Under the pieces are notes generated by a model, which did no database searches, was not told the DNA's origin, and was given only the letters and a program-made list of their open reading frames with translations. The position numbers were made by a program, and so were the translations under genes. Shown one piece after another: positions 1 through 16,041 of a DNA stretch of 16,041 bases. Each line of letters opens with the position of its first letter. The first letter of the stretch is position 1. Location: the IMG/VR virus record IMGVR_UViG_3300029877_000022, positions 1 to 16,041 of that record. One strand, given 5' to 3'. Source of the stretch: a virus. Its lineage: Duplodnaviria > Heunggongvirae > Uroviricota > Caudoviricetes.

Positions 1-99
1 CTCTGCGCTGAAATTTCTTTTTTTCATTGGAGCACCTGTGTTGTTCTGAGGTGAGCATATCACCTCTGTTCAGGTGGCCAAATTCAGTGTGCCACTTCA
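1..99 (-). mobile_element. IS3-family insertion sequence end (IS911-like): terminal inverted repeat plus first codons of orfA; element continues beyond the window start
   Basis: Reverse complement of 1..99 reads TGAAGTGGCACACTGAATTTGGCCACCTGAACAGAGGTGATATGCTCACCTCAGAACAACACAGGTGCTCCA followed by ATGAAAAAAAGAAATTTCAGCGCAGAG (MKKRNFSAE). I recognise this from memory as the IS911-type left end and orfA start; not verified by alignment. Element tip at position 99, minus-strand ATG at 26..28. Confidence 0.8.
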
Positions 100-220
100 T
101 CCTGACTTGGTAGGAGCCATTGTCCAATTTGTCTAGGAAGATATAAGTTTCATTATCATGACCCGTATTTCGGTAAAAAATTTGCTTTGAGTTCATTAAA
201 GAAATCCTCTAGAGAAAACT

Positions 221-748
221 ATGGCACTCACCGACAAGCAAGAAATGTTCTGTCGCGAGTACCTCATCGATTTAAACGCCACGCAAGCGGCTATTCGGGC
301 GGGGTACAGCGCAAAAACAGCCAACCGTACCGCATCCGAAAACCTGTCAAAACCTGACATACAATTCAGAATCTCCGAATTGAAAGCACAACGCAATGAC
401 TCTGTTGGAATAAATGCAGAATACGTACTTAATCGCCTTCTTGAAATCGACCAGATGGATGTGCTCGACATTCTCCTGCAAAACGGTGAGTTAAAGCCCA
501 TTAAAGACTGGCCTAAAGTATGGCGCACAACGCTATCAGGAATGGATGTCGTGGAGATGGTATCCGCAGATAGTTCCGCACTTCTGAAGAAAATCAAATG
601 GCCAGATAAGGTCAAAAACCTCGAACTTCTTGGTAAGCATGTTTCCGTTCAGGCATTTAAAGAACAAGCTTCTCATGAGCTAACCGGCAAAGACGGCGGC
701 GCAATCCAGATTGAAACATCACCGATGAGCACTCTATTCGGAAAATGA
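221..748 (+). CDS. Terminase small subunit (Terminase_2-type, N-terminal HTH)
   Basis: 175-aa ORF immediately upstream of and overlapping the large terminase (ATGA overlap at 745..748). N-terminus LTDKQEMFCREYLIDLNATQAAIRAGYSAKTA matches the conserved motif of the phage small terminase family as I recall it. Position is first gene of the packaging/structural operon. Confidence 0.85.
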   Translation: MALTDKQEMFCREYLIDLNATQAAIRAGYSAKTANRTASENLSKPDIQFRISELKAQRNDSVGINAEYVLNRLLEIDQMDVLDILLQNGELKPIKDWPKVWRTTLSGMDVVEMVSADSSALLKKIKWPDKVKNLELLGKHVSVQAFKEQASHELTGKDGGAIQIETSPMSTLFGK

Positions 749-2160
749 CCTCGATTAATCCTATCTTTGAACCGTTCATTGAGGCGCATCGCTACAAAGT
801 CGCCAAAGGCGGTCGAGGTAGCGGTAAGTCATGGGCAATTGCGAGGCTGCTTGTTGAAGCGGCGCGTCGGCAGCCTGTGCGCATCCTCTGTGCTCGTGAA
901 CTGCAAAACAGTATCAGCGATTCGGTAATCCGGTTGCTTGAAGACACCATCGAGCGGGAAGGGTATTCGGCTGAGTTTGAAATTCAGCGTTCAATGATTC
1001 GTCATCTCGGAACGAATGCTGAATTCATGTTCTACGGCATCAAAAACAACCCGACGAAGATTAAATCGCTCGAAGGCATTGATATCTGCTGGGTGGAAGA
1101 AGCGGAAGCGGTAACGAAGGAATCATGGGATATCCTGATCCCAACCATCCGTAAGCCGTTCTCTGAAATATGGGTGAGCTTTAACCCGAAGAACATCCTC
1201 GACGATACCTATCAGCGATTCGTCGTAAATCCTCCCGATGATATTTGCCTGCTGACGGTGAACTACACCGACAACCCGCACTTTCCTGAAGTTCTCCGTC
1301 TGGAGATGGAAGAGTGCAAACGCAGAAATCCGACACTGTATCGTCACATCTGGCTTGGTGAGCCAGTAAGCGCAAGTGATATGGCAATCATCAAACGTGA
1401 ATGGCTTGAAGCCGCAACCGATGCGCACAAGAAACTCGGATGGAAAGCGAAAGGCGCGGTTGTCTCTGCGCATGACCCGTCAGATACAGGGCCAGATGCT
1501 AAAGGTTACGCATCGCGTCACGGTTCGGTGGTTAAGCGCATTGCCGAAGGTCTGCTGATGGACATCAACGAGGGTGCTGACTGGGCTACTTCGCTGGCGA
1601 TTGAAGACGGCGCTGACCATTACCTGTGGGATGGTGATGGTGTTGGTGCCGGGCTACGCAGACAGACAACGGAAGCGTTCTCCGGTAAGAAAATCACCGC
1701 CACGATGTTTAAGGGTAGTGAATCGCCATTCGATGAAGATGCGCCTTATCAGGCCGGAGCATGGGCTGATGAAGTCGTACAGGGCGACAACGTTCGCACT
1801 GTTGGCGATGTGTTCCGCAATAAGCGAGCGCAATTCTATTACGCACTGGCTGACAGGCTGTATCTGACATATCGGGCGGTTGTCCACGGTGAGTATGCAG
1901 ACCCCGACGACATGCTGAGCTTCGACAAAGAAGCGATAGGCGAGAAGATGCTGGAGAAGCTGTTTGCAGAACTGACGCAGATTCAGCGCAAATTCAATAA
2001 TAACGGGAAGCTGGAGCTTATGACTAAGGTCGAAATGAAGCAGAAGCTCGGTATTCCATCTCCTAACCTGGCTGATGCGCTGATGATGTGTATGCATTGC
2101 CCGGAGTCGGCTGCGCAACCCGACTATTCCAGTTACTCAATTCCTTGTGGTGTAGGTTGA
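745..2160 (+). CDS. Terminase large subunit (ATPase/nuclease)
   Basis: 471-aa ORF with Walker A-like KGGRGSGKS near the N-terminus. Size and sequence recalled as very close to the Sf6-type large terminase (about 470 aa). Start overlaps the small terminase stop. Confidence 0.9.
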   Translation: MTSINPIFEPFIEAHRYKVAKGGRGSGKSWAIARLLVEAARRQPVRILCARELQNSISDSVIRLLEDTIEREGYSAEFEIQRSMIRHLGTNAEFMFYGIKNNPTKIKSLEGIDICWVEEAEAVTKESWDILIPTIRKPFSEIWVSFNPKNILDDTYQRFVVNPPDDICLLTVNYTDNPHFPEVLRLEMEECKRRNPTLYRHIWLGEPVSASDMAIIKREWLEAATDAHKKLGWKAKGAVVSAHDPSDTGPDAKGYASRHGSVVKRIAEGLLMDINEGADWATSLAIEDGADHYLWDGDGVGAGLRRQTTEAFSGKKITATMFKGSESPFDEDAPYQAGAWADEVVQGDNVRTVGDVFRNKRAQFYYALADRLYLTYRAVVHGEYADPDDMLSFDKEAIGEKMLEKLFAELTQIQRKFNNNGKLELMTKVEMKQKLGIPSPNLADALMMCMHCPESAAQPDYSSYSIPCGVG

Positions 2161-2161
2161 T

Positions 2162-4360
2162 ATGGCAGAAAAAAAGATGACTGACTGGCATCGCAAGGTG
2201 CTGTGCAACTTTGATAATGCCTGGTCAGCAACGCAGGATATGCGTGAGCAGATTATTGAGGCTCAACGTTTCGTCCGGGTGTCCGGCGCACAGTGGGAAG
2301 GCAGCACAAACGCTGGTTACTCATTTGATGAAGGCAGGTTTGAGCATTACCCGCGCTTTGAACTGAATAAGATTGCCCGTGAATGTGATCGCATCATTGG
2401 CGAGTATCGACAGAATCGCATCAGCGTTAAATTCAGGCCGAAGGACGATAAGGCATCGGAAGCGTTGGCCGAAAAGATGAACGGCAAATTCCGCGCTGAC
2501 TATCAGGAAACATCCGGTGGCGAAGCGTGTGATAACGCATTTGATGATGCTGTAACGGGTGGATTCGGTTGTTTCCGCATGTGTGCCGATTACGAAGATG
2601 AAATGGATCCGAGTAACGAGCAACGCCGTATAAGCCTTCTTCCTGTTTACGACCCAGCGACATGCGTCTTCTTTGATCAGGACAGCAAGCAATATGACCG
2701 CTCTGATGCTATGTGGGCTATGGAAATGTTCTCCATGACGCCCAAAGCGTTCGAGGCTGAATACCCTGATTCCATCGCGGCAAGCCTTTCTCGTGATGAC
2801 ACTGGCACTCAATATGACTGGTCAACGCCCGATGCCATCTATGTTGGACGCTACTACGAAGTTCGCATAGAGAAGGTGAAGCTCACGGCGTGGCGCAACC
2901 CTGTTAGCGGAGAAACGGCAATCTATGATGAAGAGCAAATCAAAGATGTTGTCGACGAGCTAACCGATGGCGCATTCGAACTGATTGGTGAGCGAACGGT
3001 GAAGAAACGCCGCGTTTATTGCGGCCTTCTGTCTGGCGCTGAATGGCTGGAAGAACCGAAGCGTATTCCGGGCGAACATATTCCTCTCATCCCGGTATAT
3101 GGGCGTCGCTCATTTGTTGATAATCAGGAGCGAATCGAAGGCCACGCAGCAAAAGCGATGGATGCACAGCGTCTTGAGAACCTGATGGTTTCCATGATTG
3201 CAGATAACGCTACTCAGGCTGGCGGTGATGGCATTCCTGTAGTTGATGTTGACATGATTCCTGGTCCTCTCGCCAATCATTGGGCGGAGCGCAACAAAAA
3301 GCGCCCGGCGTTCCTGCCGATGGTAAGTCTGAAAAACAAAAACGGAGATATTACTGCGCAGGCTCAGGTCAGCAGTTATACACCTCCAACACAAATGCCT
3401 CCTGCTCTTGCCGGGCTATTACAGTACACCGGAACGGCTATTCAGCAAATTACAGGTGCGTCGCAGCTTGAGAACATGCCGAGCAACGTCGCTACCGATA
3501 CCGTTGATAGCATCTTTAACAGGATGGACACGCAGTCATATATCTACATGGACAACATGGCTAAATCCATGCGTCGCGCTGGCGTTGTGTGGCTTTCTAT
3601 GGCGCGTGAGGTCTATGGCAGCGATACGCCAATGCGCATCGTTAATGAGGACGGCAGCGATGACGTGGCGCTGATGACTGGTGAAGTGGTTGACCGTCAG
3701 ACAGGGCAGGTTATCGCGCTTAACGACCTTTCGCAGGGTAACTATGAAGTGACTGTCGATGTCGGTCAGTCGTTCGCTACTCGCCGTGATGCAACGGTTA
3801 AGTCGTTACTTTCCATGCTGGCACTTATCCCACCAGGAACGCCGAAGCACGACCTTGTATCGTCGATGATTCTCGACAATATGGACGGCGAAGGGATGGA
3901 CGATCTTAAAGAATACAACCGCAATCAGTTGCTTCTGTCTGGAGTTATCAAGCCGAGAACACCAGAAGAACAGCAGATGGTTGAGCAGGCGAAACAACAA
4001 CAGGCCAGTCAGCCGGATCCGGCTATGGTTGCAGCGCAAGGTCAGCTTCTTGCTGGTCAGGCTGAATTGCAGAAAGCGCAGAACGAACAGGCAGCCATTC
4101 AGGTTAAAGCATTCCAGGCACAGACTGATGCTCAGGTTGCTGCGGCAAACGTTGTGAAAATCCTCGCATCTGCCGATAGCCAGCAGAAATCTGATATCCG
4201 CGAGGCTCTGAAACTGCTCGGACAGTTCCAGCAACAGCAAGGAGACAATGCCCGTGCTGATGCAGAGCTTGTCCTGAAAAGTCAGGCGCAGGGACATGCA
4301 CAACGCATGGACATCAGCAGCATCCTGCAAAAATCAACTCAGCAACAACCACAGCAATAA
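2162..4360 (+). CDS. Portal protein (P22 gp1-like)
   Basis: 732-aa ORF directly after the large terminase (stop 2158..2160, ATG 2162). Size close to P22 portal (725 aa). Shares recalled motifs with P22 gp1 (GEHIPLIPVYG, KPRTPEEQQ, DPAMVAAQGQLLAGQAELQKAQN) and has a Q-rich helical C-terminal tail. Confidence 0.9.
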   Translation: MAEKKMTDWHRKVLCNFDNAWSATQDMREQIIEAQRFVRVSGAQWEGSTNAGYSFDEGRFEHYPRFELNKIARECDRIIGEYRQNRISVKFRPKDDKASEALAEKMNGKFRADYQETSGGEACDNAFDDAVTGGFGCFRMCADYEDEMDPSNEQRRISLLPVYDPATCVFFDQDSKQYDRSDAMWAMEMFSMTPKAFEAEYPDSIAASLSRDDTGTQYDWSTPDAIYVGRYYEVRIEKVKLTAWRNPVSGETAIYDEEQIKDVVDELTDGAFELIGERTVKKRRVYCGLLSGAEWLEEPKRIPGEHIPLIPVYGRRSFVDNQERIEGHAAKAMDAQRLENLMVSMIADNATQAGGDGIPVVDVDMIPGPLANHWAERNKKRPAFLPMVSLKNKNGDITAQAQVSSYTPPTQMPPALAGLLQYTGTAIQQITGASQLENMPSNVATDTVDSIFNRMDTQSYIYMDNMAKSMRRAGVVWLSMAREVYGSDTPMRIVNEDGSDDVALMTGEVVDRQTGQVIALNDLSQGNYEVTVDVGQSFATRRDATVKSLLSMLALIPPGTPKHDLVSSMILDNMDGEGMDDLKEYNRNQLLLSGVIKPRTPEEQQMVEQAKQQQASQPDPAMVAAQGQLLAGQAELQKAQNEQAAIQVKAFQAQTDAQVAAANVVKILASADSQQKSDIREALKLLGQFQQQQGDNARADAELVLKSQAQGHAQRMDISSILQKSTQQQPQQ

Positions 4361-4450
4361 TTAACCCATAACGTGCAATGGCTGTCTTTATGAGGCCTGG
4401 CACCCTATTGCCTTCCGATGGGCTGAACATCGAGTAAACAGGGGTAACAA

Positions 4451-5344
4451 ATGGACCAGATGGCAGAAAACACACCAGAAGTTGAAATCGAAACCGACGC
4501 GTCAGAGCAGATTCCTGATGATGTCGAACTGGCTGAAGAAGTCGAAACAGAAGATGGCAGTGAGTCCTCCGGCAATGGTGCAGAGGAAGCTAGTGAAACT
4601 GATGACGACGAATCAGAACAGGAATTCTACTTTGGTGACGAAAAGCTGGATTCGCCAACCAGCGAAGATGGCGCAGAGCATGGACTGGTAAAACACCTGC
4701 GCAAGACGATTAAAGAGAAAGACCGCGAGCTGAAAGAGCTGATGCGTCAGTCTCAGAAACCCGTCGAGCAGCAGCCGGTAATCACTCTACCACCGCGGAT
4801 GCCAAAACTGGACGATGAGGACATCGGTTTCGATGAAGAAATCTACCAGCAACGCATGGCTAAGTGGGCAGAGGATAACGGCAAGTACCAGCAACAGGAG
4901 ATGGCTCGCAAGCAGAAGGAGCAGGAGCTTCAGGCTGCCTATCAAGAGCGATTATCCAAATATCAGCAACGTGTTAAGGCTCTCAAAGTTCCTGGCTATC
5001 AGGAAGCTGAGCAGGCCGTACTCGAGGAAATCCCCATCGAGACACAAAACGCGATCCTGTTTGAGTCAGAGAAGCCGGAAATCGTTGTTCTGGCGCTCGG
5101 TCGCAACGCTGAACTGCGCAAGCAACTGGCAGAAGCTACAAACCCCGTAGCAATTGGTCGTCTGCTGGAACGTATCGAATCGAAGGCCAGAATCATGCCA
5201 AAAGCAAAAACCACGGCAGCCACAACCCCGACAGTTAAGGGGAGCAACGGCGCAGTAATCAATAACCTCGACAAACTGAAAGCCAAGGCGCTGGAAACTG
5301 GTGACTGGACGCCGTATTTCGCCGCTAAAAAGGCAAAAAAATAA
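4451..5344 (+). CDS. Scaffolding protein (P22 gp8-like)
   Basis: 297-aa ORF between portal and coat. Very acidic N-terminus (D/E-rich), charged coiled-coil-like middle, basic C-terminus. Size near P22 gp8 (303 aa). RBS-like AGGGG 8 nt upstream of the ATG. Confidence 0.8.
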   Translation: MDQMAENTPEVEIETDASEQIPDDVELAEEVETEDGSESSGNGAEEASETDDDESEQEFYFGDEKLDSPTSEDGAEHGLVKHLRKTIKEKDRELKELMRQSQKPVEQQPVITLPPRMPKLDDEDIGFDEEIYQQRMAKWAEDNGKYQQQEMARKQKEQELQAAYQERLSKYQQRVKALKVPGYQEAEQAVLEEIPIETQNAILFESEKPEIVVLALGRNAELRKQLAEATNPVAIGRLLERIESKARIMPKAKTTAATTPTVKGSNGAVINNLDKLKAKALETGDWTPYFAAKKAKK

Positions 5345-5362
5345 CCTATCGGAGCATTAAGC

Positions 5363-6616
5363 ATGGCTAACCAATTAGCAAAAGACCTTGAAATCATGTT
5401 CGAAAACTACGTTGAAGGCTTTGAGGCCGCCTGCGTAGTTTCCCGTAACGCTAAAAAATTCCGTCCCGGTGATACAGCAATGCAGCGAGCAGGTGATGTT
5501 CTGTATCGTCCGCAGCATTACCACATGAACATTGAGGAAGGCCTCGACCTCAGCGGCAAAACGCCAACAGCACTGGTTCAGCGCCTTGTTCCTTCTGTGT
5601 TCAAGGAGCCGAAAAACATTCTGTACACTCTGGATGCGCGTGAAATGCGTGACCCGGAACATAAAACTGAAGCTGGTCGCGCCGCAGGTATGCGCCTTGC
5701 TGCACAGATTGACTCGGACCTGATTTCCATGGTCACGCAGCGTGCTACTAACGTGATCACAATGGCTGACTCAACCACTGGTTCACAGGGCCGTGATTTG
5801 TGGAACTGTGCGGCAGGTATTGATGCCACCATGACGGCGATTGGTGTACCACAGGGTATCAACCGCCGCTCTTTCTGGAACCCCTTCAACTACAAAGACC
5901 TTGCTGGCGAGCTTGGTCACCGTGCCTATGCTCAGGGCGCAACCCTGACAGCATACGAAAAAGCGCAGATCCCTCCGGTTGCTTCCTTTGATAGCTACAA
6001 GACCGATATTTCTGGTCGATTACCGAAAGGAAGCACTGAATCCTTGACAGTATCAGGCCAACCTGAACACAAGGTTGAAGCGAAAGATTCAAATGGTATG
6101 CCAGTTGATAACCGACAGGGGACTATTACGGTATCTGCATCTGGCTTGCAGGTTGGTGATGCGTTCACCATTGCCGGTGTGAATTCCGTACACCAGATCA
6201 CAAAAGATACCACCGGTCAACCGCAGGTATTCCGTGTTCTGGCTGTTAGCGGAAATACCGTAACAATTTCTCCAAAGATTCTCCCTGTTGAAAATACTGA
6301 TGTTGCGAGTCGTCCATATGCAAACGTCGATGCCAAACCGGCAGAATCAGCAGCAATCACCATTCTCAACAAGAACGCAGCACCTGCTAACCTGTTCTGG
6401 GCTGATGGTTCTGTTGAGCTTATGTACGGCAAACTGGCGTTCCCGACTGGTCAGGGTCCACAGGTAATGACAGCAACCACCGAGCAGGGCGCTACGCTGA
6501 TCATGTCTTACGCCTTCGACCACATCAAAGGCGTAACCACTGCTCGTTTCACCACTCTGTACGGTTGCTCTGTACTTGTTCCTGAATATACGGGCATCGT
6601 TATTGCCGGGCAGTAA
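5363..6616 (+). CDS. Major coat (capsid) protein (P22 gp5-like)
   Basis: 417-aa ORF after the scaffold gene with GGAG RBS. Size near P22 coat (430 aa). C-terminal region NLFWADGSVELMYGK resembles P22 coat NVFWADDAIRIVSQ from memory. Followed by a terminator hairpin. Confidence 0.85.
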   Translation: MANQLAKDLEIMFENYVEGFEAACVVSRNAKKFRPGDTAMQRAGDVLYRPQHYHMNIEEGLDLSGKTPTALVQRLVPSVFKEPKNILYTLDAREMRDPEHKTEAGRAAGMRLAAQIDSDLISMVTQRATNVITMADSTTGSQGRDLWNCAAGIDATMTAIGVPQGINRRSFWNPFNYKDLAGELGHRAYAQGATLTAYEKAQIPPVASFDSYKTDISGRLPKGSTESLTVSGQPEHKVEAKDSNGMPVDNRQGTITVSASGLQVGDAFTIAGVNSVHQITKDTTGQPQVFRVLAVSGNTVTISPKILPVENTDVASRPYANVDAKPAESAAITILNKNAAPANLFWADGSVELMYGKLAFPTGQGPQVMTATTEQGATLIMSYAFDHIKGVTTARFTTLYGCSVLVPEYTGIVIAGQ

Positions 6617-6620
6617 TTTT

Positions 6621-6646
6621 GGTGGGGCTTCGGCCCCATTTTTATT
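6621..6646 (+). terminator. Rho-independent terminator/attenuator after the coat gene
   Basis: GGGGC-TTCG-GCCCC stem-loop (6624..6637) with a TTCG tetraloop, followed by ATTTTTATT. Lies 5 nt after the coat stop codon. Confidence 0.65.
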
Positions 6647-6657
6647 GGGAGAAGACA

Positions 6658-6846
6658 ATGGCACGAACAATGCTCTATAAGCCTGGCAACATGATCACCT
6701 GTGGTCAGTTTGCTGTCGATTACATCATTGTTGATGACGAAGAAGTTAAATCTCACCTGAAAAAAGGTTGGGTAAAAACTCCTGAAGAAACCGCAACGAA
6801 GCAAAAAGTGGCTAAGGCGGAAGAAGATGGCGAAAACGAAGGGTGA
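6658..6846 (+). CDS. Small hypothetical protein (62 aa) between coat and gp4-like genes
   Basis: ORF-track frame 6619..6846. I place the start at ATG 6658 because GGGAGAAG sits 4 to 11 nt upstream and the 6619 start would lie inside the terminator hairpin. Acidic C-terminus. The 3' end overlaps the gp4-like start by 20 nt. Function unknown. Confidence 0.55.
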   Translation: MARTMLYKPGNMITCGQFAVDYIIVDDEEVKSHLKKGWVKTPEETATKQKVAKAEEDGENEG

Positions 6847-7288
6847 TCTCGTTCTAAAGGCTTTACGAAAAGCCGGGCTGTATTCCAGTGCCACGTTGAC
6901 AGATGCTGACCCTCAGGCAATTGAAGATGCCATTAATGACCTCGAAGACATGATGGCAGCATGGCAGGCTAAAGGTATCGAGCTTGGGTATCAGTTTGCT
7001 GATACAGAAAACGGCATCATGCCGTTACCGGACGATGATTCAGGTATCCCTGCATGGGCAAATGATGGCGTCGCTTTGAAACTCGCTGTGCAAGTGTGCA
7101 TGGATAACGTCATTCAGCCGTCAGACGCTCTCCTTACCGCTGCTGACAGTGCATATCAGACAATCTGTATCGCTTTAACCAAAATACCACCACTTGAGCG
7201 GCGAAATGACATGCCTCGCGGTAGTGGTAACAAAAGCGCGTTTACGTGGAATCGGTTTTACATCGAGAAAGATGATCCGAGTACGTGA
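6827..7288 (+). CDS. Head completion / portal-binding tail adaptor (P22 gp4-like)
   Basis: 153-aa ORF. N-terminus MAKTKGDLVLKALRKAGLYSSATLTDADPQAIEDAINDLEDMMAAW closely parallels recalled P22 gp4 ([44 protein letters not shown]). Gene order matches P22. Confidence 0.85.
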   Translation: MAKTKGDLVLKALRKAGLYSSATLTDADPQAIEDAINDLEDMMAAWQAKGIELGYQFADTENGIMPLPDDDSGIPAWANDGVALKLAVQVCMDNVIQPSDALLTAADSAYQTICIALTKIPPLERRNDMPRGSGNKSAFTWNRFYIEKDDPST

Positions 7289-7297
7289 GGTGAATAA

Positions 7298-8716
7298 ATG
7301 CCGATTCAGCAACTTCCGCTTATGAAAGGTGTCGGCAAAGACTTTCGAAACGCCGACTATATCGACTATCTGCCAGTGAATATGTTGGCTACACCCAAAG
7401 AAATCCTGAACAGCAGCGGATATCTTCGCTCATTCCCGGGCATTGCCAAACGTTCTGATGTGAACGGCGTATCGCGAGGCGTCGAGTACAACATGGCGCA
7501 GAATGCTGTTTATCGCGTGTGTGGTGGCAAACTGTATAAGGGCGAAAGTGAGGTCGGTGATGTTGCCGGAAGTGGTCGCGTATCAATGGCGCATGGTCGA
7601 ACATCACAGGCGGTAGGCGTTAACGGGCAACTGGTCGAATACCGCTATGATGGCACGGTTAAAACCGTCTCAAACTGGCCTGCAGACAGCGGGTTTACGC
7701 AGTATGAGTTAGGTTCGGTTCGCGACATTACGCGTTTACGTGGGCGTTATGCGTGGTCAAAAGACGGCACTGATTCATGGTTTATCACTGACCTTGAAGA
7801 CGAATCGCATCCTGACCGTTACAGCGCACAATATCGTGCCGAGTCTCAGCCGGACGGCATCATCGGTATCGGGACATGGCGAGACTTCATCGTCTGCTTT
7901 GGTTCATCGACTATTGAATATTTCTCCCTTACTGGCGCAACCACCGTTGGTGCTGCTTTGTATGTCGCACAGCCATCACTGATGGTGCAAAAAGGCATCG
8001 CCGGGACTTACTGCAAAACGCCGTTTGCTGATTCTTATGCATTCATCAGCAATCCGGCAACAGGTGCGCCGTCTGTATACATCATCGGCTCCGGTCAGGT
8101 GTTACCAATCGCCAGCGCGAGCATTGAGAAAATCCTCCGCTCCTACACTGCTGATGAACTGGCTGATGGCGTGATGGAATCGTTGCGGTTTGATGCTCAT
8201 GAGTTGCTGATTATTCACCTGCCGCGCCATGTACTCGTGTACGACGCATCTTCAAGCGCTAATGGTCCGCAATGGTGTGTGCTGAAAACAGGCCTGTATG
8301 ACGATGTGTACCGCGCTATCGACTTCATTTACGAAGGCAATCAGATAACGTGCGGCGATAAGCTGGAATCGGTTACCGGTAAATTGCAGTTCGATATCAG
8401 CAGCCAGTACGACAAGCAACAGGAACACCTGCTGTTTACTCCATTGTTCAAAGCGGATAACGCAAGAGTGTTTGACCTTGAAGTTGAATCGTCAACTGGT
8501 GTTGCGCAGTACGCTGACCGCCTGTTCCTCTCTGCTACCACTGACGGCATCAATTACGGTCGTGAGCAGATGATTGAGCAGAATGAACCGTTTGTTTACG
8601 ACAAACGCGTTTTGTGGAAGCGAGTCGGGCGCATCAGGAAAAATGTCGGCTTCAAATTGCGCGTTATCACGAAGTCACCTGTCACTCTGTCTGGTTGCCA
8701 GATAAGGATTGAGTAA
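7298..8716 (+). CDS. Tail hub / tail accessory factor (P22 gp10-like)
   Basis: 472-aa ORF, the same length as P22 gp10, in the syntenic position between the gp4-like and tail needle genes. Confidence 0.8.
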
Positions 8717-9417
8717 TGGCTGATTCGAATCTCAACACCCCTGTTATTGTGCAGGCGACGCGGCTCGATACATCAATCCTTCCACGCAATATATTCAGCC
8801 AGTCTTACCTGTTGTATGTCATTAATCAGGGGGCTGATGTCGGCGCAATTGCCGGGAAGGCAAATCAGGCTGGTCAGGGCGCTTACGATGCCCAGGTAAA
8901 AAACGATGAACAGGATGTCGAACTGGCTGATCACGACGCAAGAATCACCGCAAACACAAAAGCGATAAATCTCCTTGAGGTCAGGTTAACAACCGCCGAA
9001 GGGAAGATAGTCATACTACGTAGCGATGTTGATTACTTGCTGGATGAGGTTATCGATATTCAGGCGCATCTGGTCACTGTTGACCAAATGCTGGATGACG
9101 TAGAAAACGATGTCTCTGGCATTAAGAGTGATTACGTATCGAAAACCGTAACCGAATCGCAGTCTCTTGCGTCACCGCTGGATGTAAAAACATCATATTC
9201 AGTTGATGGAATTCAGGTTGTTGGAGCAAGAAATACCGGATGGACTGCAGCCACAGGTACACCTCTTTTGGGCTCATTCAACGCTAACCAGTCATACACA
9301 GTCGGCACTACGTACACACAATCCGAAGTCGCAGCCCTCGCTACAGGGTTGCAGCAGGCGCGGCAGCGTATTCTGGCGCTTGAAACGGCACTTAGATTAC
9401 ATGGGCTGATTGACTGA
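8716..9417 (+). CDS. Tail needle / cell-puncturing plug protein (P22 gp26-like)
   Basis: 233-aa ORF, the same length as P22 gp26. N-terminus [73 protein letters not shown] and C-terminus [25 protein letters not shown]...HGLID are near-identical to recalled gp26; the central coiled coil diverges. TAATG start/stop overlap with the gp10-like gene. Confidence 0.9.
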
Positions 9418-9872
9418 TGATTACATTCAAACCAACGCGAAACATCGACCTGATAGAAGCCGTAGGAAATCACCCTGACATTATCGCCGGGAGCAACAAC
9501 GGTGATGGATACGACTACAAACCTGATTACCGTTACTTTGAGGTGAACGTGCACGGGCAGTTCGGCGGAATTGTTTACTATCAGGAGATTCAGCCGCTAA
9601 CCTTTGATTGCCACGCCATGTACCTGCCAGAGATTCGCGGCTTCAGCAAGGAAATCGGGCTGGCGTTCTGGCGATACATTCTGACTAACACCACCGTTCA
9701 GTGCGTCACATCGTTCGCTGCGCGCAAATTCCGCCACGGGCAGATGTACTGCGCAATGATTGGCCTTAAGCGTGTAGGGACCATCAAGAAATACTTCAAA
9801 GGCGTGGATGACGTGACGTTTTACAGCGCCACACGCGAAGAACTAATCGACTTCCTGAATCACAGGAGATAG
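9417..9872 (+). CDS. gp14-like virion assembly/ejection-associated protein
   Basis: 151-aa ORF in the position of P22 gene 14 (between needle and ejection protein genes). Start ATG overlaps the needle gene stop (TGATGA). Assignment is by synteny and size only. Confidence 0.6.
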   Translation: MITFKPTRNIDLIEAVGNHPDIIAGSNNGDGYDYKPDYRYFEVNVHGQFGGIVYYQEIQPLTFDCHAMYLPEIRGFSKEIGLAFWRYILTNTTVQCVTSFAARKFRHGQMYCAMIGLKRVGTIKKYFKGVDDVTFYSATREELIDFLNHRR

Positions 9873-9874
9873 CC

Positions 9875-10567
9875 ATGTTATATGCATTTAAGCTGGGCAG
9901 AAAACTGCGCGGCGAGGAACCTTATTACCCTGAAAAAGGCGGGAAAGGTGGCAGTTCTGATAAAAGCGCAAAGTATGCAGCAGAAGCTCAGAAGTATGCC
10001 GCAGACCTGCAAAATCAGCAGTGGCAGACGATCATGAAAAACCTTGCTCCGTTCACGCCTCTTGCGGAGCAGTATGTTAACCAGCTTCAGAACATTTCCA
10101 GTTTAGAAGGTCAGGGGCAGGCACTTAATCAGTATTACAACTCTCAGCAGTATAAAGACCTTGCAGGTCAGGCTCGTTACCAGAGTCTTGCTGCTGCGGA
10201 GGCGACTGGCGGACTTGGTTCGACAGCTACAAGCAATCAACTGGCCACGATTGCCCCGACTCTCGGTCAGTCGTGGTTGTCGAACCAGATGAGCAACTAC
10301 AACAATCTGGCAAACATTGGCCTTGGTGCGCTGCAAGGTCAGGCGAACGCCGGGCAGACATACGCCAACAACATGAGCAGCATTGCGCAGCAAAGCGCAG
10401 CACTTGCCGCTGCTAACGCCAATAAACCATCAGGCCTTCAGACAGCAATTAGCGGTGGCACGTCTGGTGCGATTGCCGGTGCAGGTCTTGCCAGCCTTTT
10501 GGGAACATCAACGCCTTGGGGCGCTGGCATTGGTGCTGGTATCGGATTGCTTGGCTCGTTGTTTTAA
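9875..10567 (+). CDS. Ejection (internal virion) protein, P22 gp7-like
   Basis: 230-aa ORF (P22 gp7 is about 229 aa) with GGAG RBS. Q/N/A-rich low-complexity body and a Gly-rich hydrophobic C-terminus (GAIAGAGLASLLG...GAGIGAGIGLLGSLF) consistent with a membrane-inserting ejection protein. Syntenic position. Confidence 0.75.
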   Translation: MLYAFKLGRKLRGEEPYYPEKGGKGGSSDKSAKYAAEAQKYAADLQNQQWQTIMKNLAPFTPLAEQYVNQLQNISSLEGQGQALNQYYNSQQYKDLAGQARYQSLAAAEATGGLGSTATSNQLATIAPTLGQSWLSNQMSNYNNLANIGLGALQGQANAGQTYANNMSSIAQQSAALAAANANKPSGLQTAISGGTSGAIAGAGLASLLGTSTPWGAGIGAGIGLLGSLF

Positions 10568-10576
10568 GGGGTAATA

Positions 10577-11872
10577 ATGGCTACTTGGCAAGGATCAAAT
10601 GGCGGATTGTTGGCTGGTATCGGCGGCGTCAACTCAAACGCTCCGAGCGTAAATGACATCGGCAATACGCTTCAGCTTATCAGGCAGAACAATGATATTG
10701 AGCGTTCAGGCGCTAACAATGTTGGGCTGACTGCTTTGCAAGGCCTTTCAGGTATTGCAGGAGTGTTTCAGCAGGAAAAGCAGGCTCAGCGGCAGAAAGA
10801 ATTTCAGCAGGCGTACGCTAATGCTTATACGTCTGGTGATCGCGGTGCTTTGCGTCAGTTGGCTACTCAATATCCAGACCAGATTGAATCCGTTCGTAAA
10901 GGCATGGGATTCATTGATGAAGACCAGCGCAATTCCATCGGTACCTTAGCGGCTGGCGCACGCCTTGCGTCATCGTCTCCAGAAGCAATGCAATCATGGC
11001 TGCAAAACAACGCCAAGGAACTGACTCGCGTCGGTGTTGACCCTAATAACGTTGCTCAGATGTATCAGCAGAATCCTTCAGGATTTGGTGAGTTTGTTGA
11101 TCACCTTGGAATGGCTGCTCTTGGTCCGATTGATTACTTCAATGTTCAGGACAAGATGGCTGGTCGTGAGATTGACCGAGGCAGGCTGGCAGAGACAATC
11201 CGCAGCAATCAGGCAGGAGAAGCACTAACAGCTCGAGGTCAGGACATCCAGATACGTGGACAGAACATCAGCGCACAGAATGCTGCTCTTTCCCGAGAAA
11301 TACAAAGAGCAGAATTACAAGAAAAGGCTCTGGACAGACAGATAGCCAGAGAAAGCAATCAGTTAAAGCTTGAAGAGCTAAAACAGAAACAGGCAGATGT
11401 TCGGCAAAAGGCTGACATAGCCCGCGCTGACAGGCAGGCCGCCGCTCAGGGTGCAGTTGATACGTTCAGCACCGCGCTTGATTCTCTCAACGAGATAGAG
11501 CAAAGCCCCGGCCTTTCAAAAGCAGTAGGAATTCGCTCAGCGTTTCCGACAGTTCCTGGCTCTGATGCGGCTAACTTTGAAGCAAGGCTCGACACCTTTA
11601 AAGCTCAAACATTCCTTCCTATGGTGCAGTCCCTGAAGGGTATGGGCGCTCTTTCAGATGCAGAGGGTAAAAAATTATCCGATGCGGTTGGTGCCCTAAG
11701 CCCCAAAATGAGTGAAAAGGCTTTTCGTGACTCTATCGGAAAGATTAGAAATCAGCTTGAAAGCAAGTTGAGCACTGTTAAAAAACAGTTTGATTATCAG
11801 GAGCCGGTGCAGAATATGCCAGGGCAACAATCTACTACTGGCAGTAACTTTTCTTCGCTATGGGGTGATTAA
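10577..11872 (+). CDS. Ejection (internal virion) protein, P22 gp20-like
   Basis: 431-aa ORF in the syntenic position, with AAGGGG RBS. Contains a long charged coiled-coil segment (IRGQNISAQNAALSREIQRAELQEKALDRQIARESNQLKLEELKQKQADVRQKADIARADRQ). Confidence 0.7.
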   Translation: MATWQGSNGGLLAGIGGVNSNAPSVNDIGNTLQLIRQNNDIERSGANNVGLTALQGLSGIAGVFQQEKQAQRQKEFQQAYANAYTSGDRGALRQLATQYPDQIESVRKGMGFIDEDQRNSIGTLAAGARLASSSPEAMQSWLQNNAKELTRVGVDPNNVAQMYQQNPSGFGEFVDHLGMAALGPIDYFNVQDKMAGREIDRGRLAETIRSNQAGEALTARGQDIQIRGQNISAQNAALSREIQRAELQEKALDRQIARESNQLKLEELKQKQADVRQKADIARADRQAAAQGAVDTFSTALDSLNEIEQSPGLSKAVGIRSAFPTVPGSDAANFEARLDTFKAQTFLPMVQSLKGMGALSDAEGKKLSDAVGALSPKMSEKAFRDSIGKIRNQLESKLSTVKKQFDYQEPVQNMPGQQSTTGSNFSSLWGD

Positions 11873-13869
11873 TGGCTAAAGCATGGAAAGATGTTATCGC
11901 CTCTCCACAGTATCAGGCGTTAGCACCAGAACAAAAAGCGCAGGCTCAGGAGCAATACTTCAATGAAGTCGTTGCCCCGCAAGCCGGAGAAAATGCAGAG
12001 CAGGCTAAGCAAGCTTTCTATGCTGCCTATCCATTGCCATCTGTGCAGCCAGTGGAGACACAACAACCAGTATCACAGCAACAACCACAGCAAAGTGGAT
12101 TTATGTCGGATCTTGGTGAAGCCGTGAAAGAAACTGGTCGCGGACTGGTGCAGGCTGGCGTGAACGTGGCAAACATACCTGCATCAGTTGCCGATGCTGT
12201 AACAAGCGCGGCGGCTTGGGCTGGCGGTAAACTCGGAATTGGCGATGGGACATATCACCCAGCGCCACGAGTAACAACGCAGGGATTAGAGCAGGACTTT
12301 GGCCTTCAGCAAGGCGCGCTGACTCCACAAACTACAGAGGGCAGGGTATTTGCTGAGGCATTGCCTTACCTCACTCCTGCTGGCATTGAGAGAGCGGCAA
12401 CACAGGCACCAACACTCGCTGGTAGAATCGCTCAGGGTGCAACTCGCCTTCTCGCTGAAAACGCAGTCGGGTCACTTGCTGCAAATAGTGCGAAAGATGA
12501 TGCGGAAGCACTCGCTACCGATTTAGGCATTGGCGTTCTGGCTGGCGGCGCTATTAACGCTGCCGGACGTGGATTAGGCGCTGCTTATCGTGGCGTTCGT
12601 GGTGCTATTGCACCAGAAGCGCAGCAAGCTATCAGATTTGCAGAGCGTGAAGGAGTGCCTCTGCACACCACAGACCTGTTACAGCCTAGTTCCCGCGTCG
12701 GAAAAATGGCGCAAACGACAGCAGAAAATATCCCCCTGGCTGGCACAAGCGGAATGAGAGCAACGCAACAGGAAGCGAGAAGCCAGTTGGTTCAGAGATT
12801 TGCTGATAAATTCGGTGAGTATGATCCAGCGGTTGTTATTGACAGCCTTAAAGCGAAAACATCAGGAATTCGTCGCGCTGCAGGAAATCGACTGGAGCAG
12901 GTTCAGAATGCTATGGCGGGAATAAACATTCAGCCTGCAAGAGCAATTCAGCAGATTGATACAGAAATATCTAACCTGCAGAAGCTTGGTAAGGTTGCTG
13001 ATAACGAGACTATTTCAAAACTTCAGTCCTATCGTGATGAGCTTGTTCGCAATGCTGGTCCTGATGGTCCGGTAAATCTGGATTTGAAGCAATTAAGCGA
13101 TCTGCGCAGCCAGTTCAGAATGGACGTGAAGGGTGAGCGACCAGTGTTACCAAACCGTTCCGATGCTGCCATTCAGCGCGTTTACAAGGCAATGACCGAC
13201 GATATCAATGGTGCCATTGGTCAGAATCTTGGCAACGATACTCTCCGTAAATATCAGCAGGCCAATGCCGTCTACGCTGACGAAGCCGCGAAACTAAAGA
13301 ATACCAGGCTGAAGAATGTTCTCATGAAAGGCGATCTGACGCCGGAAGTTGTCAACAACATGCTATTCAGCAAGAACAAATCGGAAATTAAGACGCTGTA
13401 TAACTCAGTTGGTCGTGTTGGCAGGGCGCAAATGCGCAATGGCATCATTGGAAAGGCGATGGAGAAATCTGGCGGATCCCCTGACCAGTTCCTTCGGCAG
13501 CTTAACATCCTGCAAAACCAGACTGGCATCACATTTAAGGGGCAGGACGCTGCTTATCTGAAAGGATTAAAAAACTACCTGCAATCTACGCAGCAGGCTG
13601 CAAAAGCGGCAGTAACAACACCCACAGGGCAGCAAACTATCCCGTTCATTATTGGGTATGGGACGGCAATGAACCCTGCGACAACTGGCGCAGCAGTAAG
13701 CTACGGACTTCTTACTCGCGCCTATGAGAGCGAGCCATTCAGAAATGCAATGCTCAGAATGGCAAACACCCCACGCGGATCAACAGCGTTTGAGAAAGCC
13801 ATGCAGCAGGCACAAAAGGCAATTAACGCTATGACGCAGGGGGCTAAGTCTGATGCGTTGTCAGAATAG
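11872..13869 (+). CDS. Ejection (internal virion) protein, P22 gp16-like
   Basis: 665-aa ORF, last gene of the ejection protein trio. TAATG start/stop overlap with the previous gene. Assignment by synteny and size (P22 gp16 about 609 aa). Q/P-rich N-terminal segment. Confidence 0.7.
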   Translation: MAKAWKDVIASPQYQALAPEQKAQAQEQYFNEVVAPQAGENAEQAKQAFYAAYPLPSVQPVETQQPVSQQQPQQSGFMSDLGEAVKETGRGLVQAGVNVANIPASVADAVTSAAAWAGGKLGIGDGTYHPAPRVTTQGLEQDFGLQQGALTPQTTEGRVFAEALPYLTPAGIERAATQAPTLAGRIAQGATRLLAENAVGSLAANSAKDDAEALATDLGIGVLAGGAINAAGRGLGAAYRGVRGAIAPEAQQAIRFAEREGVPLHTTDLLQPSSRVGKMAQTTAENIPLAGTSGMRATQQEARSQLVQRFADKFGEYDPAVVIDSLKAKTSGIRRAAGNRLEQVQNAMAGINIQPARAIQQIDTEISNLQKLGKVADNETISKLQSYRDELVRNAGPDGPVNLDLKQLSDLRSQFRMDVKGERPVLPNRSDAAIQRVYKAMTDDINGAIGQNLGNDTLRKYQQANAVYADEAAKLKNTRLKNVLMKGDLTPEVVNNMLFSKNKSEIKTLYNSVGRVGRAQMRNGIIGKAMEKSGGSPDQFLRQLNILQNQTGITFKGQDAAYLKGLKNYLQSTQQAAKAAVTTPTGQQTIPFIIGYGTAMNPATTGAAVSYGLLTRAYESEPFRNAMLRMANTPRGSTAFEKAMQQAQKAINAMTQGAKSDALSE

Positions 13870-13962
13870 CTTTTCAAACACCAGGAACGTGCAAAAACCA
13901 AATATGTAGAACGCGAGGTTTATCGTATCCCTCTGCATAGGCGATGATACATTTGCTGATTG

Positions 13963-14448
13963 TTATCTGATGTTACTGCTACTGTTGCATGTGACTGTAT
14001 TTCCAAACCCTGAATTGCAGTTTGTGTAAGTTTCAACTCGTGTTGGATAGGGTTGAGTTATAACAGGCTGTCTCGCTTTTTGCTCGATCGCTTGCATTGT
14101 GTTTACAGCCTGATAATTCAATAAAGCCTGCTGGAATGCTTGGCTTTGCGCTATTTGTTGGGCTTGTTCTTGGCTTTGTAGTTGAACATAAAGATTCTGA
14201 AGCTCAAGTCTTGCCTGCGCGTCACTTATCTTGCCATCATCGACACCTTGCCCGAGCATCTTCGCAGCAAGGACATATAACTTAGGTGTTGGTGCTGATG
14301 CCATGCGTGAGTCGTTCTTCACGCTAGCATCAAGGCAATTAGCCATATCGCTAAGCTTTGGATAGCGTTGTTCGCAATTTGCCTGATAGTCGCTAACCTT
14401 TGCGCACCCTGCCAGCAGAAGCGGGATAATTAACAGTGATTTTTTCAT
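13963..14448 (-). CDS. Predicted secreted lipoprotein, function unknown (accessory/moron gene)
   Basis: Minus-strand ORF. I place the start at the ATG at 14446..14448 (MKKSLLIIPLLLAGC) because AAGGAG lies 9 nt upstream and this gives a canonical lipoprotein signal peptide with lipobox LAGC. Mature part has cysteines near both ends and a Q-rich helical middle. No recognisable homologue from memory. Confidence 0.7.
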   Translation of the reverse strand: MKKSLLIIPLLLAGCAKVSDYQANCEQRYPKLSDMANCLDASVKNDSRMASAPTPKLYVLAAKMLGQGVDDGKISDAQARLELQNLYVQLQSQEQAQQIAQSQAFQQALLNYQAVNTMQAIEQKARQPVITQPYPTRVETYTNCNSGFGNTVTCNSSSNIR

Positions 14449-14582
14449 ATGATTAACTCTCCTTATCTTTGCCATCATGGCACTGTTGGGTGTAAATGAG
14501 TTATTAACTCAATCGACAATATCTTCACGAAAATACTTTTTATTATTAAGATCTTTCTGATTCTAACAAAACGGAAAGTAAT

Positions 14583-15002
14583 ATGAAGAGGATTATCGGC
14601 GTCGTTGCTGGCGCTATATTGTTATCTGGGTGCGCAACTATTGTTGGTGATGAAACGCAGCTTGTGCAAGTGAACAGCAATCCTTCTGGCGCGAGCTTTA
14701 AGGTAAAAGATGAATCTGGTGTGATTGTTGCGCAAGGTAAGACTCCACAAGGTGTAACACTCGCCAAGTCAGATGGTAGCTATTTTGGCAAAAAGAGCTA
14801 CCAGATCACTATGGAGAAGGATGGGTACGAACCAGTTACCCTGCCAATCAAAGCCAATGCTAATGGTTGGTATATTGGTGGGAACCTTGTGTTTGGTGGG
14901 TTAATTGGTTGGCTTGCTGTAGATCCATTTAATGGTGGGATGTATACCTTGAAGCCTAAAGAGGCAAATGCATCCCTTATACCGTCCACAAAGCAAGACT
15001 AA
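14583..15002 (+). CDS. Predicted lipoprotein with PEGA-like domain, function unknown (accessory/moron gene)
   Basis: 139-aa ORF with lipoprotein signal MKRIIGVVAGAILLSGC (lipobox LSGC). Middle region NPSGASFKVKD...GKTPQGVTL...YQITMEKDGYEP resembles the PEGA domain pattern. Gly/Trp-rich C-terminal segment GWYIGGNLVFGGLIGWLAVDPFNGGMYTL. Followed by a terminator. Confidence 0.7.
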   Translation: MKRIIGVVAGAILLSGCATIVGDETQLVQVNSNPSGASFKVKDESGVIVAQGKTPQGVTLAKSDGSYFGKKSYQITMEKDGYEPVTLPIKANANGWYIGGNLVFGGLIGWLAVDPFNGGMYTLKPKEANASLIPSTKQD

Positions 15003-15009
15003 TAAATGG

Positions 15010-15033
15010 AACCCACCATCAGGTGGGTTTTTT
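15010..15033 (+). terminator. Rho-independent terminator after the lipoprotein gene, overlapping the mnt stop codon
   Basis: AACCCACC-ATCA-GGTGGGTT hairpin (15010..15029) followed by a T-run to 15033. The poor U-tract on the opposite strand suggests it acts mainly on + strand transcripts. Confidence 0.7.
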
Positions 15034-15270
15034 GTACAAATCCTTCAGCGTATCAAACACCATCTTCTTAACAAGTTCAGACTGCTCATCAGCGATGCGT
15101 TCCGCATCGTCTCGATAGCCTGAAATTTTGGATGGCCTTGATACAGCATCAGTCACTATCTGAACTAATTCTGAATTAAGAGAGCGGCCATTGGATTTGG
15201 CTCGCTGTTTTAGTTTTTCCTTTAATTCGTAAGGTAGCCGCAGATTAAATTGCGGGTCATCTCTTCCCAT
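15019..15270 (-). CDS. mnt: Mnt repressor (ribbon-helix-helix, Arc/MetJ family)
   Basis: 83-aa minus-strand ORF MGRDDPQFNLRLPYELKEKLKQRAKSNGRSLNSELVQIVTDAVSRPSKISGYRDDAERIADEQSELVKKMVFDTLKDLYKKPT. Near-identical in length and sequence to P22 Mnt as I recall it, including the N-terminal beta-strand DNA-reading motif and C-terminal tetramerisation helix. Confidence 0.9.
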   Translation of the reverse strand: MGRDDPQFNLRLPYELKEKLKQRAKSNGRSLNSELVQIVTDAVSRPSKISGYRDDAERIADEQSELVKKMVFDTLKDLYKKPT

Positions 15271-15332
15271 TCTTGATGCCTCGCTCTTGTGAGTGGATCG
15301 GCATCTTATTATCTGCTGGTTGCATCCTCAAT

Positions 15333-15349
15333 AAGACCACGGTGGTCGT
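15333..15349. promoter_or_regulatory. Mnt operator-like 17-bp palindrome
   Basis: AAGACCACGGTGGTCGT has a symmetric core GACCAC-G-GTGGTC (15335..15347). It resembles the P22 Mnt operator as I recall it (AGGTCCACGGTGGACCT). Located in the 135-bp gap between the mnt start and the tailspike start. Confidence 0.6.
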
Positions 15350-15405
15350 ATTTTTTGATTAATAATGAATCACTGCGGCCATTCCTTGTATCTGGAGCAA
15401 ATTAA

Positions 15406-15945
15406 ATGACAGACATTACAGCCAATGTTGTAGTGAGTATGCCTTCGCAACTCTTCACTATGGCTCGTTCTTTTAAAGCCGTAGCCAATGGCAAAATTTA
15501 TATCGGTAAAATTGACACTGACCCGGTAAATCCTGAAAACCAGATTCAGGTCTATGTTGAGAACGAAGATGGTTCTCACGTTCCTGTTGCACAGCCAATC
15601 GTCATCAATGCCGCAGGGTATCCAGTATATAACGGACAGATTGCCAAATTCGTTACCGTGCAAGGCCATTCTATGGCTGTTTATGATGCGTATGGTGCAC
15701 AGCAGTTCTATTTTCCTAATGTGCTGAAGTATGACCCGGATCAGTTTAAACAAAAAGTATTATCAAATGATATGCTAAATATGTCTCCTCTTTATTTTGG
15801 AGCTAAGGGGGATGGGATTAGCGATGATACTGAAGCATTTGTCGCGTTGGAAATGGATATAAAAAATAGGGTTATTGATTTAAGTGGAAGAGCATTTTTT
15901 GTTACTAAAAGTTTTATTGGAAATAGCTATATAAATGGTTCTTAG
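15406..15945 (+). pseudogene. Tailspike gene truncated by IS2 insertion; retains the P22-type head-binding domain and the start of a pectate-lyase-like receptor-binding domain
   Basis: N-terminus [59 protein letters not shown]...[15 protein letters not shown]...[10 protein letters not shown] is the conserved tailspike head-binding domain. It is followed by an AT-rich segment encoding [16 protein letters not shown]. The frame ends at a TAG that is the first 3 nt of the IS2 end (15943), so the ORF is 179 codons instead of the 600 to 700 expected. Confidence 0.85.
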
Positions 15946-16041
15946 ACTGGCCCCCTGAATCTCCAGACAACCAGTATCACTTAAATAAGTGATAGTCTTA
16001 ATACTAGTTTTTAGACTAGTCATTGGAGAACAGATGATTGA
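15943..16041 (+). mobile_element. IS2 left end (IRL, orfA promoter region and orfA start codon); element continues beyond the window end
   Basis: TAGACTGGCCCCCTGAATCTCCAGACAACCAGTATCACTTAAATAAGTGATAGTCTTAATACTAGTTTTTAGACTAGTCATTGGAGAACAGATGATTGA matches the IS2 left end as I recall it, ending with ATGATTGA (MID..., the start of the first IS2 ORF). One possible mismatch to my recalled consensus (CCAGTATC here, CCAATATC recalled). Confidence 0.85.

Follow-up and report, generated by a model that had tools for sequence, protein, structure and literature searches.

A P22-like tailspike gene of a gut Escherichia coli prophage with an exchanged, predicted propeller-type receptor-binding module, interrupted by IS2

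The tailspike gene at this locus raises two questions: which kind of receptor-binding module stands behind its conserved N-terminal domain, and why its reading frame closes after 179 codons. The window (the whole stretch of 16,041 nucleotides that was analysed) spans the block of late genes in a P22/Sf6-like prophage of a human-gut Escherichia coli, and an exact-protein look-up of the reading frame leads to a human-gut metagenome contig (ERZ918213, k127_33847, 16,097 bases) from sample ERR912181. Upstream of the tailspike, which comes last, lie P22/Sf6-like late genes for the small and large terminase, portal, scaffold, coat, head closure and a gp16-like DNA transfer protein. Of the sequenced phages, the best match extends over 82% of the window with 96.2% identity; Sf6, CUS-3 and Sf101 reach about 95% identity over 50–65% of it. 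The region from the ejection genes to the tailspike (13963–15270) is reduced and atypical among P22-like phages, with a single Arc-family gene and without ant or mnt. The features of this end of the window, as far as the junction, are the following.

13963–14478, minus strand: gene of unknown function (phrog_6067)
14583–15002, plus strand: gene of unknown function (phrog_6823), annotated as a transthyretin-like domain protein
15019–15270, minus strand: Arc-family repressor gene directly upstream of the tailspike, in a reduced immI-like region (phrog_3178/7906, Arc-like; Arc family annotation in the identical GMF054 locus)
15406–15945, plus strand: tailspike reading frame, 179 codons and a TAG stop
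15406–15747, plus strand: tailspike codons 1–114, P22/Sf6-type head-binding (tail-attachment) domain, from Pfam, PDB and phage DNA identity
15743–15753, no strand: homology breakpoint, at which the DNA match ends and the conserved anchor gives way to the exchangeable receptor-binding module

The other AT-rich stretch of the window (about 14426–14623, GC 0.28–0.33) falls between the first two of these genes, and a TTG-start reading frame of 127 codons on the minus strand (15370–15753), antisense to the head-binding coding region, is very probably spurious.

The translation of 15406–15945 is the one quoted in the earlier note, which had read the protein as P22-family head-binding domain up to about codon 110, and this reading is borne out. 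The Pfam family Head_binding (PF09008) matches residues 1–113 over its full length (profile 1–113 of 113) with E 5.7e-68 and 226.7 bits against a cut-off of 24, and the PDB matches are Sf6 gp14 (7sg7) over residues 1–120, with about 93% identical residues by our own count, and P22 gp9 over residues 1–116, without a match beyond. The downstream part is thus not the P22/Sf6 endorhamnosidase, in line with the earlier note, which had seen no resemblance to that of P22. At the DNA level the head-binding region is 94–96% identical to many P22-like phages as far as the junction. The protein is a member of the P22-family (Head_binding) tailspikes, encoded at the end of a P22-like morphogenesis and ejection block. 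In P22-like virions the tail carries six trimeric spikes, each held by this domain.

The position at which this similarity stops is sharply defined. In 14 of the 15 best-matching P22-like phages the DNA match ends at 15743–15753 (in the fifteenth already at 13679), in E. coli prophages with other receptor modules it is lost at about 15743–15759, and a direct alignment with the tailspike gene of E. coli VTB97022v, which carries a different module, loses homology after ...GATCAGTT, at base 15746. The base composition changes as well, as the earlier note had expected from about 15740 onward: GC falls from 0.440 (15406–15744) to 0.303 (15745–15942) and third-position GC from 0.42 to 0.18 across the same split, which was set beforehand at 15744/15745 (Fisher p 0.0018). 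None of the 198-base windows in 1–15405 is as low as 0.303 (minimum 0.323, mean 0.497, sd 0.040), so that the sequence after the junction is the lowest stretch of this length in the window. The compositional shift is thus present, though a change-point fit on GC alone within the reading frame places the sharpest drop at about 15851–15857 (log-likelihood gain 5.6), some 100 bases past the junction; composition alone would therefore miss the boundary, which is located by the homology breakpoints. In the intact allele of E. coli GMF054, described below, AT-richness is strongest over codons 115–200, and the module as a whole has a GC of 0.397. The comparison with related phages and prophages thus confirms that the junction is truly mosaic and coincides with the swap point known from the P22 family, and the horizontal replacement proposed earlier gains further weight from the several anchors on which relatives of the module are found. 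That P22-like phages swap their receptor-binding domains while keeping an N-terminal domain of some 115 residues has long been described (PMC2629481). The exchange seen here is ordinary in kind and adds little to the principle.

All that the window retains of the receptor-binding module is about 66 residues:

15748–15942, plus strand: tailspike codons 115–179, linker and first part of the cap segment, AT-rich

The earlier note had assigned this segment to right-handed beta-helix, pectate-lyase-like polysaccharide depolymerases from its N-terminal motif. The association of the motif with beta-helix glycosidases is real, in that GAKGDGxSDDTxAF is the start of PF12708 (the pectate-lyase-like family), and a profile of the cap segment, built from 11 relatives and run against solved proteins, matches the marine tailspike Dpo31 (8e-13) and GH55 glucanases (3e-9) and also polygalacturonase, the CBA120 and phiAB6 tailspikes and phi29 gp12; in Dpo31 the matched residues (229–289) straddle the start of the beta-helix domain and run into it. 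The same profile matches the endosialidases 1v0e, 3gvl and 4hiz (2e-8 to 3e-6, over 51 residues), where the cap precedes a propeller. The GAKGDGxSDDT motif is present in beta-helix enzymes and likewise stands at the start of the endosialidase N-terminal extension, and on sequence it appears to mark a cap common to both; it is therefore not diagnostic of the fold and does not identify what stands behind it. Pfam searches with the 70 post-junction residues alone gave two sub-threshold matches to different families, PF12708 (12.8 bits against a cut-off of 27, E 0.11, 15 residues) and the endosialidase N-terminal extension PF12218 (18.0 bits against 26.3, E 0.0023).

The fold was read from an intact allele. 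In E. coli GMF054 (L001) the tailspike gene encodes 881 residues annotated as 'phage tailspike protein' under the accession WP_134316561.1, and its DNA is 100% identical to window 15300–15943, with codons 115–179 likewise 100% identical; the module downstream of the window is taken from this allele, the identity being known over the shared part only. The intact protein matches Head_binding over residues 1–113 and Peptidase_S74 (PF13884) over residues 713–774 (33 bits, cut-off 22), and more weakly the family Phage_RBD_prop (PF21311) over residues 229–471 (15.9 bits against a cut-off of 23.7, E 0.01); PF12708 gave no match in the 881 residues. Among 13 relatives, which are 27–72% identical in the alignment to P0001, a protein 98% identical to the intact allele, End_N_terminal (E at most 0.01, best 2.8e-8) and Peptidase_S74 are each found in 11, Phage_RBD_prop in six (best E 2.9e-12) and PF12708 in one (E 0.0019). 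Of the relatives scanned singly, P0012 reached 31.3 bits on PF12218, over the cut-off of 26.3, and P0014 25.4 bits, just under it; P0012 also scores 29.2 bits on PF21311. The residues Q232, D237, H280-Q281, W296, R370, Y387, E394, D412, Y417 and E466 are invariant across the family.

Structure prediction points in the same direction. The AlphaFold model of P0001, a monomer from a 13-sequence alignment (mean pLDDT 64.9; residues 522–597 and 690–722 poor), has a pLDDT of 75–91 over about residues 200–510, where it displays successive four-strand sets. Foldseek places the receptor-binding proteins of phi11, 80alpha, P68 and NF5 at the top of the PDB matches (E 5e-15 to 2e-12) and matches the C-terminus to the intramolecular chaperones 3gw6 and 4uw8; among predicted viral structures the best match is the neck appendage protein of Bacillus phage GA-1 (E 1.7e-26, 725 columns). 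The receptor-binding body is thus predicted to be a five-bladed beta-propeller that resembles phi11 Gp45, and the intact module shows what appears to be an endosialidase-type cap, the propeller, a stalk and a C-terminal Peptidase_S74 chaperone domain. Ser713 and Lys718 of the intact allele (SDRNYK, Ser-x4-Lys) align with the serine and lysine of SDGTLK in CUS-3, and by this analogy the C-terminal chaperone should cleave itself at the Ser713/Lys718 dyad. In endosialidase maturation the C-terminal domain drives folding of the trimer and then removes itself.

These results bear directly on the beta-helix reading. A pectate-lyase-like profile is below the cut-off in the window and absent from the intact allele, and the fold behind the cap is, from the Pfam matches of relatives, the AlphaFold model and the Foldseek comparisons, a propeller rather than a right-handed or parallel beta-helix. 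Among the folds of phage depolymerases about 86% are beta-helices and about 12% propellers (PMC11326577), which, together with the motif and the cap-profile matches to beta-helix proteins, speaks for a depolymerase of the common type; being contradicted by the propeller evidence of the intact allele, a beta-helix depolymerase is nevertheless a very improbable identity for the module. The assignment of the module as an endosialidase was likewise rejected on the propeller evidence, with no detectable similarity to the six-bladed sialidase propeller.

What a propeller of this type might do can be approached through its two sets of relatives. Characterised P22-like spikes are enzymes, and phi11 Gp45, the nearest structural relative, is a binder and is not known to be an enzyme. 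From these opposing analogies an enzymatic propeller would seem slightly the likelier of the two, with a pure binder close behind.

The module is rare. It occurs in four of 5426 complete E. coli genomes, and none of 50,697 phage records contains at least 80% of it; tblastn of the module against the same records found no close relative (best identity 28%), and the only paper that a literature search on E. coli tailspikes with a five-bladed propeller brought up was one on Staphylococcus P68. Its relatives are carried behind the same linker on different N-terminal anchors (Head_binding, Tail_spike_N, Phage_T7_tail and others without a Pfam match), from which it follows that it was acquired as a module. 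One such event can be followed between E. coli GMF054 and E. coli 'C' (milk) (L002): upstream of the tailspike gene the two are unrelated, the first 225 or so bases of the gene are 85–93% identical, and from about base 226 onward identity rises to about 100%, across the module and a GT2 glycosyltransferase gene (PF00535, E 1e-31) of convergent orientation and further still (L001 4332–8644 in comparison with L002, a region outside the window and downstream of the IS2). This pattern implies one crossover inside the head-binding coding sequence, with the module travelling together with the GT2 gene, and it suggests a linked cassette for spike specificity and surface modification.

Two further proteins were observed in the course of these comparisons. 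P0014 (899 residues) carries a second propeller-type module, 29% identical, also on a P22 head-binding domain, and its junction and linker are almost identical to those of the window tailspike; the conserved linker may itself be a recombination site. The partial E. coli protein P0010 has the same propeller body (92% identical) on a different N-terminal anchor, while in the cap segment identity to window residues 126–179 falls to 69%, which hints at a second putative recombination point inside the cap, at about window 15880–15900 (around codon 160).

The second question, why the reading frame closes where it does, is answered by the last bases of the window, the insertion in which had been absent from the earlier note.

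15943–16041, plus strand: left end of IS2 (IS3 family), with terminal repeat TAGACTGGCCCCCTGAATCTCC..., leader and the start of orfA (ATG at 16034), in the same orientation as the tailspike and running off the window
15943–15945, plus strand: TAG stop of the 179-codon reading frame, formed by the first three bases of IS2, from comparison of the window with L001

In the intact allele the corresponding bases (15943–15945) are TTT, coding for Phe180, and the frame continues TTTATTCGTGATGG... (TTT ATT CGT...); identity with the window ends at 15943. By our own comparison 15943–16041 is identical to the sequence that precedes an 'IS3-like element IS2 family transposase' in E. coli VTB97022v (L003), and the distance from the end of the element to the ATG is 91 bases in both, an agreement that assigns this stretch, as judged from its sequence, to IS2. 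The stop codon consists of IS2 bases, so the 179-residue protein is a truncation product and not a complete gene. The rest of the tailspike gene presumably lies beyond IS2 in the source strain; a larger rearrangement at the element would also be compatible with the data, since its right end and any 5-bp target-site duplication lie beyond the window, and the source contig, too, ends inside IS2.

IS2 in the same orientation was also observed in P22-like tailspike genes of three complete E. coli genomes (L003 4457, L007 ~3977 and L006 ~4416), at about codons 144, 154 and 294 compared with 179 here, that is, at different codons shortly after the head-binding domain. Such recurrence may be due to chance, to a preference of the element for AT-rich targets or to selection that disarms prophage spikes.

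Alternatively, IS2 could have created a short gene in its own right, the 179-residue reading frame coding for a head-binding protein that acts by itself, for example as a tail plug or decoy, and that selection has retained. The frame is intact, with a normal tailspike start and upstream region, and it has been called on five metagenome contigs (the first and four similar ones); the insertions just behind the head-binding domain in the three complete genomes would fit as well. Against this, the stop codon is the terminus of IS2, the frame ends in the middle of a cap segment that continues unbroken in the intact allele, the four insertions lie at different codons and in different modules, as for independent disruptions, and the fragment bears no sign of selection, so that a functional short product is hard to credit. 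Equally little credence attaches to an artefact of short-read metagenome assembly, with the gene intact in the organism: the source contig is MEGAHIT-style and breaks off in a repeat, 127 bases into IS2 by our own arithmetic from the look-up coordinates (the length that a repeat would give if the contig's 'k127' denotes the k-mer size of the assembly), and IS2 matches are present in 4841 of 5426 E. coli genomes, but the tailspike and IS2 share a single base at the join, so that a de Bruijn path needs junction-containing reads, the reading frame on five contigs is possible only with the IS2 stop codon, and comparable insertions are found in tailspike genes of closed genomes, which makes an artefactual join very unlikely.

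In summary, it is very probable that the locus combines a P22-like anchor, a swapped propeller-type module and a disruption by IS2 after codon 179. Codons 1–114 encode the domain by which the trimeric spike attaches to the tail, and at 15743–15753 the gene switches to a horizontally exchanged receptor-binding module, in which the cap would be followed by a five-bladed 'RBD platform' propeller that is likely to bind and could possibly cleave a glycan. The class of receptor would be a surface glycan, O-antigen or capsule, and the C-terminal intramolecular chaperone would first bring the spike into its trimeric form and then release itself by a cut at Ser713. Exchange of the module would proceed by homologous recombination, with one of the crossovers in conserved 5′ coding sequence and with the GT2 gene moving along, and IS2, inserted after codon 179 and supplying the stop, would leave the prophage with no functional tailspike unless the element excises. 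A more far-reaching interpretation is tentative and, in our estimate, rather unlikely, namely that the module represents an uncharacterised enterobacterial receptor-binding family, with a phi11-Gp45-like propeller, an endosialidase-type cap and a self-cleaving chaperone, that serves as a plug-in cassette on several tail anchors and is linked to a GT2 serotype-converting gene, the repeated IS2 hits then possibly marking selection to disarm such spikes; if it were true, a glycan specificity or an enzymatic chemistry new to P22-like phages would be possible.

The host range of phages is set by tailspike receptor modules, which also find use as reagents for typing, in engineered pyocins and as enzymes against capsule or O-antigen. 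Gut E. coli prophages carry here a rare, uncharacterised module of the predicted propeller type that is carried by no isolated phage in the collection. The results also indicate that a GAxGDGxTDDT motif is unfit for calling a beta-helix depolymerase from an N-terminal fragment, and that a '179-aa tailspike' which is an IS2 truncation matters wherever host range or prophage viability is predicted from such contigs.

Among known systems, the closest analogue in overall layout is the endosialidase tailspike of CUS-3 (siaK1, ABQ88383.1), whose P22-type head-binding domain is identical in sequence up to YDPDQ. In the CUS-3, K1F and K1E endosialidases, as in the intact allele, a GAxGDGxxDDT cap leads into a beta-propeller body, which is followed by a stalk and then by a C-terminal chaperone of the Peptidase_S74 type. 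Between CUS-3 and the intact allele the chaperone region is 25% identical, with the Ser-x4-Lys motif conserved, and some relatives of the module (P0007 and P0009) carry the endosialidase linker KYPxL...GDPRGWGA. The difference lies in the propeller, predicted as five-bladed and phi11-like in the intact allele and six-bladed, with sialidase catalysis, in CUS-3, the two being without detectable similarity. The right-handed beta-helix O-antigen hydrolases that serve P22, Sf6 and HK620 as tailspikes share the head-binding domain, the gene position at the end of the late operon and the swap point at about residue 115, whereas their receptor-binding part is unrelated (beta-helix compared with the predicted propeller here), and P22 gp9 is without the cleavable C-terminal chaperone that the intact allele possesses, its cleavage being predicted. 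The Staphylococcus receptor-binding proteins of phi11 (Gp45, 5efv), 80alpha, P68 and NF5 (PF21311) are only about 11–12% identical in sequence to the intact allele and differ in phage type, Gram-positive hosts, teichoic-acid receptors and N-terminal attachment, with no S74 chaperone in the same arrangement. Finally, the tail spike protein of Escherichia phage Pollock, the closest among the 50,697 phage genomes (28% identity over 68% of the module), and the GA-1 neck appendage protein are distant relatives on different anchors, in which the domain is, as far as found, functionally uncharacterised.
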